Below are positions 2,716 to 29,591 of a stretch of DNA of 64,000 bases, in pieces. A program made the translations under genes and the position numbers. This stretch comes from Octopus vulgaris (Eukaryota): NCBI GenBank assembly GCA_951406725.2, contig OX597832.1, forward strand, positions 6,696,001 through 6,760,000. Direction: 5' to 3'. Position 1 is the stretch's first letter. Every line of letters starts with the position of its first letter. Under the pieces are notes generated by a model that worked only from the letters and a program-made list of their open reading frames with translations, did not search any database and was not told where the DNA came from.

Positions 2716-2985
<270 letters not shown>

Positions 2986-4524: not shown

Positions 4525-7086
4525 CAGGGGTTCCCAACCTTTTTTCGCTATGGACCACCAAAATAAGTAATTTTTTCCTGTAGACCACCTCAAATTTTAA
4601 ATTTATTATTAAAGAACTGCTACTCATGAATATTAGTATCACTTTGCAATGAAAATTCCTTTTCCGTTCTTGTAAGGGACTTTACAGAGAACAAACAACT
4701 GAGAAGACCAATTACAAAACCTATTTGCAAATGCACATGGTTCTCAAGAAAGCTTTATTTGATAGAATCGAATAGAAAAGGTTACTGAATTGTGGAAAAC
4801 ACCTCCTTTTATTTAGAAAAAAAGCTGTACAGTTAAAATATAACAATGTGAAGGGTAAATTCAAAAAATGCAAAGCGTAAAGTTGAGATCAGTACAAAAG
4901 GTCATGTAAATGTTTGAGGGAATATAACAAATTGAATTAACTTAAAAATGTCAGCGACAAGTCATCAGAAAAAACGTCAAGAGACCTTCAGTGAGACCCT
5001 TGGGCTTGCTTTTTATCCACAAGCTGAGAAATCCTTGGCTCTTTTTGGCTCAATCAAATTCTCAAATCAGCATTGTTATCAAGGTTCAAATACCTCCGCT
5101 GCTTCATAAACAAGTGAAGGACAAGGGAAAATCCCTTTTCAGCCAAGTAGGATGTTGGAAGATTTATAATAAAAGGCTCGACTTATTCAAACAACTTTAA
5201 ATATTCGTGAGAATGATTCAACCAAGCCTCAACCCAGTGGTTTACAGATGATTTGTGCAGATTATCATCTACCGTCACCTCACATAACTCCATCTGAACA
5301 CATTCTGGTTGAACAAGTATATTGTTCATAGACATTGTGTGAAGAGAGTCCACAAAAATTACGATATTTAAAGTCAAAAGATCTTCAAAACGAATATTGA
5401 AGTTTGCGTGAAGGAAAGATAGATGCCTGATTATATATTTGTGCAAGTTGTTATCTACCACAACAGTTTTTAAGTTCACAAACTGCAGAGGGTTATGATC
5501 TTCAATTTGAAGTTTCCAAAGAACGAATTTATTCACAAGTGCCCTTATCAAGTGTCTGGCTCATACAATGTTGATGTTTTGCTTTTGTAAAGAAATATTG
5601 TAATCACTAAGTTTTTGAAAGATTTCATGTAAGTAAAAAATTGCTGTCATAGTTGAATCAGTCTGTTGAAAAAACTCTATGACTTTATCGAAAAGTGCCA
5701 CAAAACATCTGAGACAACTTCCCATTGATAGCCAGCATATATCTGTCAAATACAACAGACGGTTAAACATTTCATCTTTACAAGCTTCTTGAAAATGCCT
5801 GTCTTGATGAGCAGATCTTTTGATTTTTTTTACTGTGGAAGCAGTTAAGTCTAGGGTTTCAGAAAATATATTATTTCTGGTTCTTTTTGCTATTAGGTTT
5901 TCTCAGTGGAGAACGCAATGAATTGTGAAGACGGGATTAATTTCTATCCATCTGGCAACAAAACCCTGGGATTTGCCAATCATAGACAGTGCTCCATCAG
6001 TGCATATTGATATGAGGTTGAGGGGATCAATGCCATTTTTAGTAAGATAATCCATGACTGCATTGTAGACCGTCTCTCCTGTGTTTTTCAGGACGGTTTT
6101 CACAAACTGTGGTACCTTTCACATAGCGAGCAAAGGCAAGGGCAATACATTTGTTGTCAAAAGCATTGTCATCCACCGTCAATGAGAATCTGCAGTGATG
6201 CAAGTCTTCTACAACTATGGATTCGACATCTTCGGCCATTTCACAAATGCGGGAAGATACAGTGCTGTTTGAAAGTGGAATACTTGCTAAAACTGACTAA
6301 AACTGACTAAAACCATACTAACGGTTGTTAGTATGGACAAGGAAATTTTTGAATGATGAAGATGAGACATTTTTTTTTGTGATGGTATTCTTTGAAGTAC
6401 TCCTTTGGCTTGCCAAATAAACCAGGATGGATTTTTTGTAGATGATACAACAATTTTGAGGGTTTCATTGAGTCGTTAGTTAATACTTTTGAGCAGATAA
6501 TACATTGTGGTAGAAAAGGATCTTCTACACTGGATACAAAACCATATTTGATATAATCTTCATGATATTGTCTACGGAGTCTTTTTTCCGAGTTGATGGA
6601 CAGAGAATTAAGAGAACATTTTTCCATATCACTGACAGCAAAATTTCTACAGATTACAATTAAACTAACACTTGTGTAAAAATGTATGTACCTGGAGAGA
6701 TAATACTATATGTTGGGTAAGCTGTAGGAACTGCAGTTTCATTAGTAATCCTCAATTCAAGTCAGGTAGAAAACAGGATTGCGTTGATTGGCCAAGAACA
6801 CACAATTTTTTGTGTTTTTAATGTGCGCAAATGTGGATCCAATTGTACTCATCTGTACCTGTCTGGTATGTGTCTATGTATGATAGGATAGCTAATCGTC
6901 CAATAGGCAATGAGTGCACTTGTATGTGCTCATGCATATGTGATGAGGCATATTTTGTTTGTGCAACATGTACGTGTACGGAAAAATTTTAATTCATCTG
7001 GTGGACCACAGAAAATTTTCCATGGACCATCTGAATTTTCCTGTGGACCACCTAGTGGTCCACGTGGATCAGGTTGGGAACCCCTG
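4525..7086 (-). mobile_element. Full-length hAT (Charlie/Buster-type) DNA transposon, inactive
   Basis: Perfect 16-bp TIRs CAGGGGTTCCCAACCT (4525-4540, 7071-7086). 8-bp TSD ttccaaag/ttctaagg (6/8). Subterminal tggaccac motifs at both ends. Confidence 0.93.
4990..6627 (-). pseudogene. hAT transposase pseudogene (BED finger, DDE core, dimerisation region)
   Basis: Fragments RQYHEDYIKYGF..PQCIICSKVLTNDSMKPSKL..H, SICTDGALSMIG, IHCVLH, PTSYLAEKGFS. Broken by several frameshifts and stops. Confidence 0.9.
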
Positions 7087-7818: not shown

Positions 7819-8019
<201 letters not shown>

Positions 8020-9998: not shown

Positions 9999-10931
9999 TT
10001 TTTTTAGTGCATGTGTGTGCATGCATATACACGTGTGTATGCATATATATATGTATGCATGTGTGCACATTTGTATGTATATATGTACGCTGTATATGTT
10101 TGTGTGACTATGTATGTGCATCTGTTATGTATGGATGTGTCTCCATTTGTGTCCTTGTGTGAAGTGTGCCTGTGCAAAATGTAAAATAAATTATTAATCA
10201 CCTCTGTGTGTATGTGTGTGTGCGTGCAGTGTGTACACAGAGATATACATATGTATGTATATGCTTACATTATTCATATTTTACAAATGATCATGATATC
10301 TGTTACTATAAAAATCTCCAGGACCTTCTTAAGGATGTTGGTTAAAACAAGATGCTTCTCTTTGCAACTTTGTTACCAAGTAGGTGGCTGGTAAAAATTT
10401 AATCTTATTTAAAAAAAGAAAGAGAACACACATTCACAGAGTACCAGACCAATTATTCAGCAAACCTGGGACCAACAGTATCCCGTTTTCTATAGACAGT
10501 CTAAATATATATATTTAGAATATAAAATAGACTATGAAAAGTAAAAAATTGTATTTAACAGATTAATTTAGTACACTCCCAAAGCAAGTTCTGTTTGGTA
10601 CTTATTAACCCATTTAAAATACTTTACATACTGTAACATGTATACAGCATAATTTTTATAAGATGAAAATTAAAGAACATAATTTTATTTAACAGATAAA
10701 AATTACTGAAAATTAGTTCACAACATCGAGTTACGTCCCTTGTTTCATGTCCGTTCCCAATTTTGTTGACGTTAACTCTGAACCTGGGAGCCATCCTTAA
10801 GCTCGTTATCCTCGTGATTTGAGAGGCTTCTCTTCTCTCCCCCTCTCTCATATTTCTCCGTCCGTGTAACTTAATGTTTAAAGAAATTATTTTGCCTATG
10901 TGATAAACCCTAATCACGTTTTTTCTTGTAG

Positions 10932-11143
10932 GTATGACCAATGCTGAAGTCCTGCATCAAGTAGAACATGGTTACCGCATGCCATGTCCACCTTGCTGTC
11001 CTAAAGCCCTCTACGATATTATGTTGGAATGTTGGCGTAAAGAGGAAATGGAACGTCCGACATTTGAGACCTTGCAATGGAAGCTTGAAGAATTCTTTAC
11101 CATGGAGGGTACTGATTATAAAGAAGCCGCAGTGGTGCGATAA
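10932..11143 (+). CDS. Src42A: Src42A-like kinase terminal coding exon with C-terminal regulatory tyrosine
   Basis: cttgtag|GT ATG. Encodes [69 protein letters not shown], stop TAA. Confidence 0.96.
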
Positions 11144-11219
11144 AAATAAACAATACTGGCGAACCTGTCTGAATTTATAAAACTGTTTAACATATATATA
11201 TTATATATATATTATATGT

Positions 11220-11277
<58 letters not shown>

Positions 11278-11829
11278 CATACATATATATGAAAAGAAAC
11301 ATAATTGCTAAGGACTTTTTTTTTAATGTGTCATCTAAAAATCGATCCCCTAATCCCCTCATGAACAGTATTTTTTTGGTGGCTGAAGTGAATGTAATTA
11401 AACAGCTGACTCCATGCATTGCTATGACCTAGAACAGAGTATGGCGAGACATTCTGCCTCTCCTTTATCTTTCACCGAAGATGAAGAATGTTATTGAGAC
11501 ATCACTACGAAGAGATGCGGTGGGTAGAGCAGCTGCGAGTTGCGTCCCTTGTCTTAGGTCTACCCTGTTAGTTCGTTGTCTGCCAGCTTTGTTGTACCAC
11601 ATCACTGTCGAACTGATTGTTTCTCAGAGATGAAGGATATTATACGTGAGCTAGTTATTCCCATTGTCCTCTCTGTTTTATGTTTCCTTCCATTTAATTA
11701 AAAGAAAAAAAAAAGAAAAAGGAATAACCAAATACTATTGTATCTGACACATTTGAATGCATCTTGTATTTTTCTCTCTGAATAACTGTGTGCATGCATG
11801 TATGCATGTTGGTGCCAATACCTGTTCGG

Positions 11830-18180: not shown

Positions 18181-19014
18181 AATACACATGCCGAAAGAGC
18201 TACTAATAGTTTTATGCTTTTATGATACTTTAAATAAGTATATTTATAAAATACGCCATGTATCTCCAAGCGATTTTTCAGGTTCTGTTTATGTGTTAGA
18301 TAAATTTTAAAAACTAAGATGATGGACAAGTGAGAAAATAAGAAAAATGCAAAGAAGGTTAATGCAAAAATGGAAGGAGAAGAAAGAAATGTTATGCAAA
18401 CATCTATCTTCTTTTCAGCATATCAACAACATTAAAGCAACTGAGTTGGCTTGGTATATATGGCATCTGAAGACCAACTCTACTCCACATATAATCGAGT
18501 GGAGAATCATGGAGAAATCCAAGCCATATGTTAATGGATCTAAGAAATGCAGAAAGATCTCATACGCTTCTTAGATCCAAGAATTTTACCATGCTACTTA
18601 ATACCAGTTCTGAAATATTTAGCAAGTGCAAGCACAAGGACAGGTTTCTTTTGTCAAACTAGAGGATACCATCAGCTCCAGATTGAGTTGCAGTCTTGCA
18701 GGCTTTGACATATTTTCCTGTTATACCAGCTGCATTAATTGTGTTTCCAGTAATCAGGGAGGACAGGGATCTTGGTTTTTTTGCTTTTGTTTCTTCTTGT
18801 CCATTTTTGTTTTGCGTCAACCTTCCTCATGTTTTTCTTCTCGTTTTTTTTTCTTATTCTCTTACTGTCCATCATCCTAGTTTTTAAAATATATCTAATA
18901 CATGAACAGAGCCAGAAAGATTGCTTGGAGATACATGACATATTTTTATAAATATACTTATTTAAAGTATCATAAAAGCAAGAAAGTATTAATGGCTCTT
19001 TTGTCATGTGTATT
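18181..19014 (+). mobile_element. Penelope-like retroelement relic: GIY-YIG C-terminus between ~165-bp inverted repeats
   Basis: HLSSFQHINNIKATELAWYIWHLK..IEWRIMEKSKPYVNGSKKC and LLNTSSEIFSKCKHKDRFLL* (18395-18663). 18181-18347 is the reverse complement of 18848-19014. Confidence 0.8.
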
Positions 19015-20135: not shown

Positions 20136-20227
20136 TTAAAAGAAACCATTTAAATTCCAGAAGGCAGTTTATCACGCATTCTACTTCCTCCCAAATTCTA
20201 CACATTCTGTAGAAGTCAGCCCAGTAA

Positions 20228-20465
20228 GGTGGCGAGCTGGCGGAAATGTTAGCACTCTGGGCAAAATGCTTATCAATATTTCGTCTGTCTTTACGTTCTG
20301 AGTTCCAATTCCACCGAAGTCGACTTTGCCTTTCATCCTTTCGGGGCCGATAAATCAAGTATCGGTTATGCACTGGGGCCAATGTAATCGACTTAATCCC
20401 TTTGTCTGTCCTTGTTTGTCCCCTCTATGTTTAACCCCTTGTGGGCAATAAAGAAATAAGAAATT
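20228..20465 (+). mobile_element. tRNA-derived SINE family A (Deu/Nin-like central segment)
   Basis: gagctggcgg...gagttccaattcc head and gcctttcatcctttcggggccgataaa core. TSD agcccagt(a/t)a at 20218-20227 and 20466-20475. Confidence 0.88.
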
Positions 20466-24766: not shown

Positions 24767-25036
24767 ATAGATAAACAGGTCTGGAAAAAAACCAATCACC
24801 AAGCTGACTTAACTGGTGGTGGCAACAGAAACTGCCAAAACAGACATCAGAATTCTCAGTTGGCATTTTTCAGACAATTATTGTCCCTGTTAGTGGATAT
24901 GTTTTCTTTTATGTGTGTTAACTACAGCATTAGAGTATTTTAGCTCTTATTTCGAGCAATGTAGATGTTTTTTAACACCCTAGTCACATTTAGTGACAAT
25001 TATAATTCTCCTTTTTGCTGAAACAGTGCAACCTGT

Positions 25037-25233
25037 TACTCTTTTACTCTTTTACTTGTTTCAGTCATTTGACTGCGGCCATGCTGGAGCACCGCCTTTA
25101 GTCGAGCAAATCGACCCCAGGACTTATTCTTTGTAAGCCCAGTACTTATTCTATCGGTCTCTTTTGCCGAACCGCTAAGTGACAGGGACGTAAACACACC
25201 AGCAATGCTAGGGGGACAAACACAGACACACAA

Positions 25234-25278
<45 letters not shown>

Positions 25279-25434
25279 TACGACAGGCTTCTTTCAGTTT
25301 CCGTCTACCAAATTCACTCACAAGGCATTGGTCGGCCTGGGACTATAGCAGAAGACACTTGCCCAAGATGCCACGCAGTGGGACTGAACCCGGAACCATG
25401 TGGTTGGTTAGCAAGCTACTTACCACACAGCCAC
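25037..25434 (-). mobile_element. SINE family B, near full length, inverted relative to 24372-24766
   Basis: High-identity reverse complement. Confidence 0.88.
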
Positions 25435-27104: not shown

Positions 27105-29081
27105 TCACTGGTCTTGCCGGATCTTCTGACGCACAGCATACTTCCATAGGTCTCGGTCTCTGGTCATTTCCTTGGTGAGACCTAGAGTTCGAAGGTCGTG
27201 CTTCACCACCTCGACCCAGGTTTTCCTGGGTCTACCTCTTCCACAGGTCCCCTCAACTGCCAGGGTGTGGCACTTTTTCACACACCTATCTTCATCCATT
27301 CTCGCCACATGACCATACCAGCGCAATCGTCTCTCTTGCACACAACATCTGATGCCTCTTAGGTCCAACTTTTCTCTCAAGGTACTTACACTCTGTCGAC
27401 TATGAACACTGACATTACACATCCAACGGAGCATACTAGCTTCATTTCTCGCGAGCTTACGCATGTCCTCAGCAGTCACGGCCCATGTTTCACTGCCATG
27501 TAGCATGGCTGTTCGTACACATGCATCATACAGTCTGCCTTTTACTCTGAGCGAGAGGCCTTTAGTCACCAACAGAGGTAAGAGCTCCCTAAACTTTGCC
27601 CAGGCTATTCTTACTCTAGCCGTTACACTTTCAGCACACCCACCCCCACTACTGACTTGGTCACCAAGATAACAGGAGCTATCAACTACTTCTAGTTTTT
27701 CCCCCTGGAAAGTGACGGAAGTTGTTTTCTGCAGATTTTCAGAGGTTAATGCTCCCGAGCATCTGCCACATACAAGAACCATCTTCCTAGTTAGCCTTCC
27801 TATGACATTGCTGCACCTCTTATGTGTCCATAGCTTACACTTGGTGCATCTTATAGAGTTTCTACCTACACCTTTTCTAAAGATCGAGCAGGGCCATCTA
27901 CCTGAAGGCGTTTGTGATTTGTCTACCTTCCTACTTATTACGACTTTGGTTTTAGCTAGGTTGACTCTAAGGCCCTTCGATTCTAAACCATGCTTCCACA
28001 CCTGAAACTTCTTCTCCAGTTCTGATAATGACTCAGCAATTAGAGCAAGGTCATCAGCATAGAGGAGCTCCCAGGGGCATCCTGTCTTGAACTCCTCCGT
28101 TATTGCCTGGAGGACTATGATAAATAGGAGGGGGCTGAGGACTGAACCTTGGTGGACCCCTACCTCTACCCGGAATTCTTCACTGTACTCATTGCCAACC
28201 CTCACCTTACTAGCAGCATCCCTGTACATGGCTTGCACAGCTCTCACTAACCATTCATCTATTCCTAGTTTCCTCATTGACCACCAGATGAGGGATCGGG
28301 GGACCCTGTCGAAGGCTTTCTCCATGTCAACAAAAGCCAGGTACAGGGGCTTATCTTTGGCTAGGTATTTCTCCTGCAGCTGCCTTACCAGGAATATAGC
28401 ATCAGTGGTACTTTTCCCTGGCACGAACCCAAACTGCATCTCATCTAAACTAACTCTCTCTCTAATTAGTTGGCTTATGACCCTCTCTGTAACCTTCATC
28501 ACCTGATCCAACAGCTTGATACCTCTGTAATTATTTGTATCTAGGGCATCACCTTTACCTTTGTAGCAGTTGACTATTATGCTGCTACACCAGTCATTGG
28601 GTATGACTCCTTCATGTATCACCTGATTAACTATACAGGTGACTAGGCTATAGCCGACACTACCAGATATTTTGAGCATCTCTGCAGTGATACCTGATGG
28701 GCCTGGGGCTTTCCCTGTCTTCATGCTTCTAATTGCCTTAGCTACCATGGAACTATCAACCCTGATAGCTGGTCCCTCTGTTGGGTCAACGTTCGGCAGA
28801 CTCTCTTTATCCCATTCATTTTCTTTATTCAGCAACCTTTCATAGTGGCGTCTCCAAGCCTCTCTCTTTGCATCCTCGTTTAGCGCAAGTGAACCATCTT
28901 CCATGCGAACACACTTCTCTCCTACCACATCACAATTCTCTCTCACACACTGTCTTGCAACGCGAAACACCTCCAGTCTTTCGTCCTCACGGCGCAGAAC
29001 ATTGGCAAATTTTTTCTTATCTGCTTCCCCTCTAGCTAGATAGACCTGTCTCCTAGCTTCTCTTTTAGCAGTCTGATACAA
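27105..29081 (-). CDS. RTE LINE reverse transcriptase ORF (658 aa open) with an embedded PHD-like finger
   Basis: GKAPGPSG, NYRGIKLL, QFGFVPGKSTTDAIF, AFVDMEKAFDRV, GVHQGSVLSPLLF, YADD. The upstream part has an in-frame TGA (~29163) and a frameshift. Confidence 0.92.
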   Translation of the reverse strand: MYQTAKREARRQVYLARGEADKKKFANVLRREDERLEVFRVARQCVRENCDVVGEKCVRMEDGSLALNEDAKREAWRRHYERLLNKENEWDKESLPNVDPTEGPAIRVDSSMVAKAIRSMKTGKAPGPSGITAEMLKISGSVGYSLVTCIVNQVIHEGVIPNDWCSSIIVNCYKGKGDALDTNNYRGIKLLDQVMKVTERVISQLIRERVSLDEMQFGFVPGKSTTDAIFLVRQLQEKYLAKDKPLYLAFVDMEKAFDRVPRSLIWWSMRKLGIDEWLVRAVQAMYRDAASKVRVGNEYSEEFRVEVGVHQGSVLSPLLFIIVLQAITEEFKTGCPWELLYADDLALIAESLSELEKKFQVWKHGLESKGLRVNLAKTKVVISRKVDKSQTPSGRWPCSIFRKGVGRNSIRCTKCKLWTHKRCSNVIGRLTRKMVLVCGRCSGALTSENLQKTTSVTFQGEKLEVVDSSCYLGDQVSSGGGCAESVTARVRIAWAKFRELLPLLVTKGLSLRVKGRLYDACVRTAMLHGSETWAVTAEDMRKLARNEASMLRWMCNVSVHSRQSVSTLREKLDLRGIRCCVQERRLRWYGHVARMDEDRCVKKCHTLAVEGTCGRGRPRKTWVEVVKHDLRTLGLTKEMTRDRDLWKYAVRQKIRQDQ

Positions 29082-29591
29082 TTCCCTGCTACCCCCATTC
29101 TTCCAGTGCTTCCAAGTCTGTCTCTTTTCTCTAATAGCCCTGTCTACAACACTGTTCCACCATCACGTTACCTTGGGACGAGAGGGGACTTTGCACCAGC
29201 CACAGATCTGGTCAGTGGCTCTCAGCAGGTTGTCCCTTAGAAACGTCCAGTTGCCCTCTATCCCCTTCTACTTCGTCAAAGGCTTCAAGTAACATGTCTC
29301 TAAATCTCTGTCCATTCGCAGGATCCTTAAGCTTCCAGATCCTTCTTCTCCATGTTGGTCGTCTTCTGGTTGTCCTCCTACTCCTGATCCTAAAGTCACT
29401 AACTACCAGTCTATGTTGTGGGGTACATTCTTCGCCTGGGAAGGTTTTGGCATTTATAAGTAGCCATCTCTCCCTTTGCCTGGCAAGGATGTAGTCAATT
29501 TGGCTGGTATGTTGGCCCGATCGGTAGGTGACTAGGTGGCTGGTAGGTTTCCTATATATATATATGTGTATGTGTGTGTAAAACACACACA

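Follow-up and report, generated by a model that had tools for sequence, protein, structure and literature searches.

A candidate intronic editing guide facing the terminal exon of octopus Src42A

The Q/R and R/G sites of GluA2/GRIA2 are ADAR recoding sites with an intronic editing-complementary sequence (ECS). Recoding in coleoids reaches tens of thousands of codons, and the RNA structures that guide this process have mostly been inferred from spliced transcripts. In the sections of Gabay 2022 (PMC8897444) used here, ASNS and NEIL1 are further recoding sites with an intronic ECS, and the portion of Moldovan 2022 (PMC8891338) at hand describes introns as largely ignored in work on coleoid editing structures. 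A literature search found nothing on a Src42A editing structure or on a cephalopod intronic guide in titles and abstracts (subscription papers and some supplements lay outside its scope), and a term search of the main text of bioRxiv 10.64898/2025.12.15.694494 was without matches.

Here, we analyse a 64-kb stretch of Octopus vulgaris DNA (the window), in which the last intron of Src42A is predicted to pair with the last exon. If real, the intronic arm of this pairing would act as an intronic ECS, a kind of element already known. The likeness would lie in an intron that pairs with a coding exon in the pre-mRNA, the candidate target forming an A.C mismatch beside a paired AA. At the octopus locus, however, the partner is 5' of a terminal exon and the fold encloses the acceptor. 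The predicted duplex is also far less perfect than the 50-bp one given for ASNS in the available sections, and its target sits at a helix end. A long imperfect rod beside an edited adenosine could recruit ADAR, as editing inducer elements do (PMC3479170, PMC5654063, in the parts consulted); these, however, are separate stem-loops validated by mutagenesis, whereas the octopus rod joins intron to exon and is predicted. Sites 251/252 of squid SRC42 (Alon 2015, PMC4384741, in the available part) lie in the same exon of the orthologous gene and are likewise two adjacent, highly edited adenosines, but in another species, and their assignment to a Lys-to-Gly change is our own inference.

Src42A and the CpG-rich arm of its last intron

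The gene hosting the candidate pairing is octopus Src42A, a Src-family kinase, whose last intron and last exon are involved. Three plus-strand exons are in frame once joined: 2768..2946 and 7819..7975 (from the activation loop to YPG), both with AG/GT borders and an open frame after joining, and the terminal coding exon 10932..11143, whose peptide is identical across the Src42A proteins of Octopus vulgaris, O. sinensis, O. bimaculoides and Argonauta. Read data consisted of assembled contigs only, with four of the 24 listed runs aligned (X12, from one relative, and the three RNA runs X4, X10 and X14). In X4 and X10, RNA contigs connect the 3' end of exon 7819..7975, seen as a loose end, to 10930. 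Peptide matches and RNA joints thus bear out the preliminary description, made from the sequence alone, in calling 10932-11143 the terminal kinase exon; it is the last coding exon of Src42A. Directly 3' of the stop codon lies an AATAAA (11145..11150, plus strand), by its sequence likely a proximal poly(A) signal. Exon contigs from two studies stop at 11162 and 11165, a weak hint, and the main Src42A 3' UTR may be only ~20 nt long. Elsewhere in the protein, members P0122-P0135 of the Src42A cluster carry 2-, 3- or 5-residue insertions (VV, VSA, VSAVV) directly upstream of G-K-G-R, in the first exon of the window, which suggests a tandem splice-site choice common to octopus and squid-type proteins.

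The arm (10726..10880, plus strand) had been singled out as CpG-rich, and the anomaly holds: it has 8 CpGs in 155 nt, an observed/expected ratio (O/E) of 1.08, compared to 0.17 in the rest of the last intron. It is covered by RNA contigs, and it is single-copy in X12, where one contig spans 10710-11009 at an even depth of 3.71. The repeat remnants that flank it reach depths of 110-260 in the same run; depth peaks and loose ends mark a multi-copy remnant adjoining the arm (10640..10702, no strand assigned) and others at 10330-10430 and 10480-10545 (strand not given). The window holds no long or clear second copy of the arm, which was earlier described as not a recognisable transposable element and does not behave as a high-copy repeat. 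No RNA contig covers 10290-10610, a gap on which no argument is built here. Rfam covariance models gave 43 weak matches, none of them overlapping 10700-11145. Nor does the arm behave as an alternative exon: no splice joint leads into or out of it among the loose ends listed for the three RNA runs, and its plus-strand open frames are at most 40 codons long, with no kinase continuation.

Comparative evidence on the arm is confined to close relatives. They differ from it at 10744 and 10791, neither change being compensatory and each costing at most 0.5 kcal/mol of stability. In X12 there are 2 differences in the 155 nt of the arm and 5 in 736 nt overall, which amounts to no extra conservation of the arm at a divergence that is small. 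The arm matches none of 85 non-cephalopod Src42A loci, the metagenome and genome collections searched yielded no cephalopod intron of this locus, and ten short open reading frames with intronic extensions all had non-cephalopod tails.

The surroundings contain some related features. The 17-mer that opens the arm (10727-10743) recurs at 11536-11552 with one mismatch (blastn E 0.04; 24 of 1000 shuffles), inside a second CpG-rich patch (11400-11680, O/E 0.65) about 800 nt downstream. Part of this patch (11520-11600) pairs with the same stretch of exon as well as the arm does (-35.2 versus -35.6 kcal/mol); the patch could be a competing partner of the exon, or this could be chance. In the first 26 kb, the only other patches as CpG-rich are 20150-20450 and 25000-25400, which we take to be young octopus SINE-type repeats. 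The penultimate intron carries a 2.56-kb element (4525-7086) with perfect 16-nt terminal inverted repeats, presumably a decayed hAT-type DNA transposon. At 18195-19000 there is an 800-nt MITE-like element whose 154-nt inverted arms are 88% identical and would form strong dsRNA if transcribed. A GC-rich block (26-35 kb) includes a 685-codon open frame (27105-29162, minus strand), probably a retroelement.

A squid editing site and its candidate octopus counterpart

The squid orthologue of the terminal exon is an ADAR target. In the accessible part of Alon 2015 (PMC4384741, supplementary file 1C/D), squid SRC42 sites 251 and 252 of comp123751_c1_seq2 are adjacent and, in the giant fibre lobe, edited at 82/82% by HiSeq and 92/87% by Sanger sequencing. 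The validation primers given there map to the octopus acceptor (10921-10944) and to 11042-11062, and these positions place the squid sites within the stretch matching 10945-11041. The rows in that part list contig positions only, and not codon change, structure or ECS. The codon is indicated from another side. Two Logan-assembled proteins, P0133 (9 contigs) and P0132 (85 contigs), both cephalopod-type, differ solely by K480G. The residue matches the AAA codon at 11003..11005 (plus strand), and a change from Lys to Gly there requires two neighbouring A-to-G changes. Among 280 homologues, two have glycine at the equivalent position, P0133 and a leafhopper sequence, and in a PDB alignment the lysine corresponds to Glu492 of human c-Src, in the C-lobe of the kinase. 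Taken together, squid sites 251/252 are likely the Lys-to-Gly codon matching 11003-11005, which makes this codon a candidate double A-to-I site in octopus.

This alters the picture in the preliminary description, which had proposed ADAR recoding with the K-E-E-M codons (11039-11050) as an example. Recoding of the exon gains support from the squid sites and from K480G at the end of a predicted helix (helix 3, below), but the K-E-E-M codons do not: they are invariant in all 16 cephalopod-type sequences compared, with 15 of the 18 members of the Src42A cluster listed, and E-E-M lies under the squid validation primer. The squid primer differs from octopus at four of the five variable third positions in 11042-11062, inside the outer helix described below, and with these four synonymous differences the exon strand is not strictly fixed in this part. 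Around the candidate lysine, octopods have C-P-P-C-C-P-K-A and squid-type sequences C-P-P-G-C-P-K-P, with differences at codons 10994-10996 and 11006-11008. The named octopod proteins of the Src42A cluster have lysine in 10 of 10 cases, which carries little weight as they are database gene models.

Octopus RNA contigs covering the exon (depths 120 and 315, in X4 and X10) are free of any difference, A>G included, though minority edits are lost in contigs; X14 leaves the terminal exon uncovered. Majority editing is hence excluded in two octopus RNA samples only, of unspecified tissue. SRC42 was not found in the octopus editing supplements of PMC8382921, PMC9989829, PMC7192619, PMC7703385 and PMC9699675, a search whose scope left aside the large PMC9068888 spreadsheet and bioRxiv supplements. 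The arm itself is present in low-depth RNA contigs of all three RNA runs. Two of these runs also cover the exon, and there the depth over the arm is ~2% of the exon's; one RNA contig crosses the acceptor unspliced. Position 10874 shows a single A>G in one of the two RNA contigs covering it (unspliced, depth 2.7); this change lies outside the supported helices and could reflect an error or a SNP.

The predicted fold measured against chance

The preliminary description had drawn a single imperfect hairpin of ~360 nt, with the 3' splice site in its loop. All 12 of the helix motifs looked up are present at or beside the coordinates it gave, yet the hairpin was overstated, and a single structure of 360 nt is rejected on the predicted folds. 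Its outer helices survive. They pair 10726..10776 with 11031..11088 (both plus strand, the latter including K-E-E-M) through ~42 bp in the minimum free energy fold of 10720-11095, with pair probabilities of 0.94-1.0 in that fold and ~0.55 in the fold of 10700-11145; this outer rod is non-significant after scan correction. Helix 3, in which 10809..10830 (plus strand) pairs with 11004-11028 through 20 bp (-17.8 kcal/mol), is a minority state: for 10809-10829 with 11004-11028 the probability is 0.3-0.45 at 37 C, dropping to 0.08 at 13 C. Its window ranks 1, 17 or 99 of 1219, depending on the exon window chosen. Helix 4 (10866-79 with 10964-75) is absent from the predicted fold, having probability 0 and a cost of 7.6 kcal/mol, and is outcompeted by an exonic hairpin (10966..10987, plus strand, pair probability ~1.0). 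The acceptor AG (10930-10931) is predicted to be paired rather than looped out, in a local hairpin over the acceptor region (10893..10934, plus strand; probability 0.92-0.98). The predicted rod thus totals ~62 bp in two blocks, both 3' of the candidate target.

The end of helix 3 coincides with the lysine codon. In the model, A11005 is paired with U10828 and A11004 with U10829, while A11003, whose 5' neighbour is U, faces C10830 in an A.C mismatch; its edited form is predicted to pair there with probability 0.41, and editing both adenosines is predicted to stabilise the ensemble by 2.8 kcal/mol. According to the available part of Moldovan 2022 (PMC8891338), A-C mismatches and paired AA sites are frequent at coleoid edits. 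Once the intron is removed, the target adenosines are predicted to lie in a small loop of the mRNA, with a pairing probability of 0.02-0.04, and this, with a possibly very short 3' UTR, makes the upstream intron a natural candidate for the partner. On the 5' side of the target adenosines, folding predicts no duplex. The ECS rule in the sections of Gabay 2022 (PMC8897444) used here asks for a duplex of at least 30 nt, at least 70% paired, flanking the edited adenosine on both sides; for A11003/11004 the arm supplies 21 columns, on the 3' side only, short of this rule. The K-E-E-M adenosines pass an approximation of this rule, as do 72 of the 123 exonic adenosines, so that it is non-discriminating here.

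Set against chance, most aspects of the pairing are unexceptional. The region as a whole, whose folding against shuffles was proposed in the preliminary description as a check, is no more stable than shuffles (z +0.94; 84 of 100 equally stable). With scanning included, the best duplex is matched by 34 of 141 block shuffles; the scan grid fell 3 kcal/mol short of the best window, and 14 of the 141 reach even the best-window value. The intron-exon interaction energy is equalled or bettered by 135 of 165 shuffles, z ranges between -1.1 and 0 for complementarity alignments under four scorings (strict Watson-Crick z -0.12), and the best partner of the lysine-codon region is matched by 15-52 of 150 shuffles, depending on the window. 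On the same grid an unrelated intron window scores -31.8 versus -31.9 for the real pairing. Initial z-scores of -3.2 for the outer duplex and -3.9 for helix 3 came from windows chosen post hoc and fall to chance level once scanning is included. A further candidate partner of the exon, 18800-18826 (27 nt, 93% paired), was treated as chance; it is U-rich, lies in an inverted-repeat element and scores 102, where another exon gives 103 and shuffles as much as 104.

Two features of the fold stand out from these controls, the statistics for both having been devised after the fold was known. Its collinear intron-exon pairs add up to a rod mass of 50.9 bp, a value attained in 6 of 153 shuffles, in 1 of 40 orthologous non-cephalopod junctions (genomic, non-redundant and with 250 nt of intron, out of 80 loci) and in 4 of 120 GC-matched windows (120 run of 128 candidates). 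The rod-like geometry is marginally unusual, with p about 0.03-0.04 in three nulls. The other feature concerns CpGs: several in the arm were said to sit opposite exonic CpGs, and in the predicted fold two do, while two more face exonic TpG. The expected number of CpG:CpG pairs is 1.94 in the real fold and 0.70 +/- 0.60 in shuffles, of which 5 of 153 reach the real value. The shuffles preserve local GC and CpG content, and are conservative if that content was itself selected for pairing. Overall, the arm-exon pairing appears only weakly above chance, and with most nulls negative and compensatory change absent in close relatives, the earlier inference of a selected pre-mRNA structure is not borne out.

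Readings of the arm and their consequences

How might the arm work? Under the explanation we consider best, the CpG-rich arm would fold onto the terminal exon ahead of splicing, and the imperfect rod would recruit ADAR to the lysine codon 11003-11005, where a glycine would replace the lysine in nervous tissue, as is likely in the squid orthologue; the outer rod would perhaps serve as an editing inducer. We infer both the octopus editing of this codon and the choice of the arm, rather than another partner, as the duplex strand. The arm as an upstream ECS for this lysine is plausible and unproven, and we hold it tentatively, at somewhat less than even odds. In its favour are the 82-92% editing in the orthologous squid exon (in the accessible part of that study) and the K480G variant, the position of the codon at the close of helix 3 with its A.C mismatch and edit-linked stabilisation, the rod geometry, the retention of CpGs without multi-copy status, and the A>G at 10874. 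It is weakened by five kinds of energy and alignment test at chance level, by a target at the end of a helix that is a minority state and weaker in the cold, by exon contigs without A>G, by flanking codons that differ between octopod and squid-type sequences, by close relatives without compensatory change and by a downstream stretch (11520-11600) that makes an equally good partner.

Chance pairing of a GC-rich patch is nearly as likely as an editing guide. The pairing would then be a by-product of base composition, the GC/CpG-rich patch being kept by drift or for a reason at the DNA level (an unmethylated enhancer-like element); editing of the squid exon would use some other structure, and octopus may lack this editing. 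We find this possible, to a degree just short of the guide. Block shuffles that preserve composition and do as well as the real sequence, or better, on energy and alignment argue for it, together with the near-identical score of an unrelated intron window, the downstream patch and the U-rich tract at 18800 that pair equally well or better, and octopus contigs free of exon editing. On the other hand, just 3-4% of controls match the rod collinearity, and as few the CpG:CpG pairing, and helix 3 stops, with an A.C mismatch, at a codon independently indicated as edited. An arm without function, derived from an old transposon or from an inverted exon copy that has since decayed, would account for the adjoining repeat remnants and for the arm CpGs opposite exonic TpG, but this sits poorly with the strict Watson-Crick alignment, with the single copy in X12 and the want of a clear second one in the window, and with the CpG depletion of neutral sequence in this intron; such an inert remnant is the least probable of the readings considered. 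A real structure serving the splicing or retention of the last intron, which would bring the intron to the exon and hide the acceptor in a hairpin, is improbable too, if slightly less so. It fits the predicted pairing of the acceptor AG, the cover of the arm in all three RNA runs and the contig left unspliced across the acceptor. Yet 3' bias accounts for the intronic cover, and octopus splice sites are very rarely altered by editing in the available part of Zolotarov 2022 (PMC9699675). Among the loose ends listed, the upstream exon is linked to the normal acceptor only, in RNA contigs of two studies, and with no alternative acceptor among these joints and ends and an intronic depth at ~2% of the exon, the splice-site control first suggested for this structure finds no support.

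A wider form of the guide reading, with an upstream guide across coleoids that folds over the acceptor and near-complete neural Lys-to-Gly recoding in the Src42A C-lobe tied to the timing of last-intron splicing, is rather unlikely in our judgement. It would, if true, give a cephalopod recoding site a cis-element that is mapped and open to mutation. Should the pairing be chance, what remains is the likely Lys-to-Gly assignment of a published squid site. The analysis also points to a neural glycine variant of a Src-family kinase, at a position where glycine is rare (2 of 280). If the guide is real, an intron-exon duplex would lie beside a site that is 82-92% edited in squid, and the part played by intronic guides and splicing kinetics in coleoid recoding would become testable.
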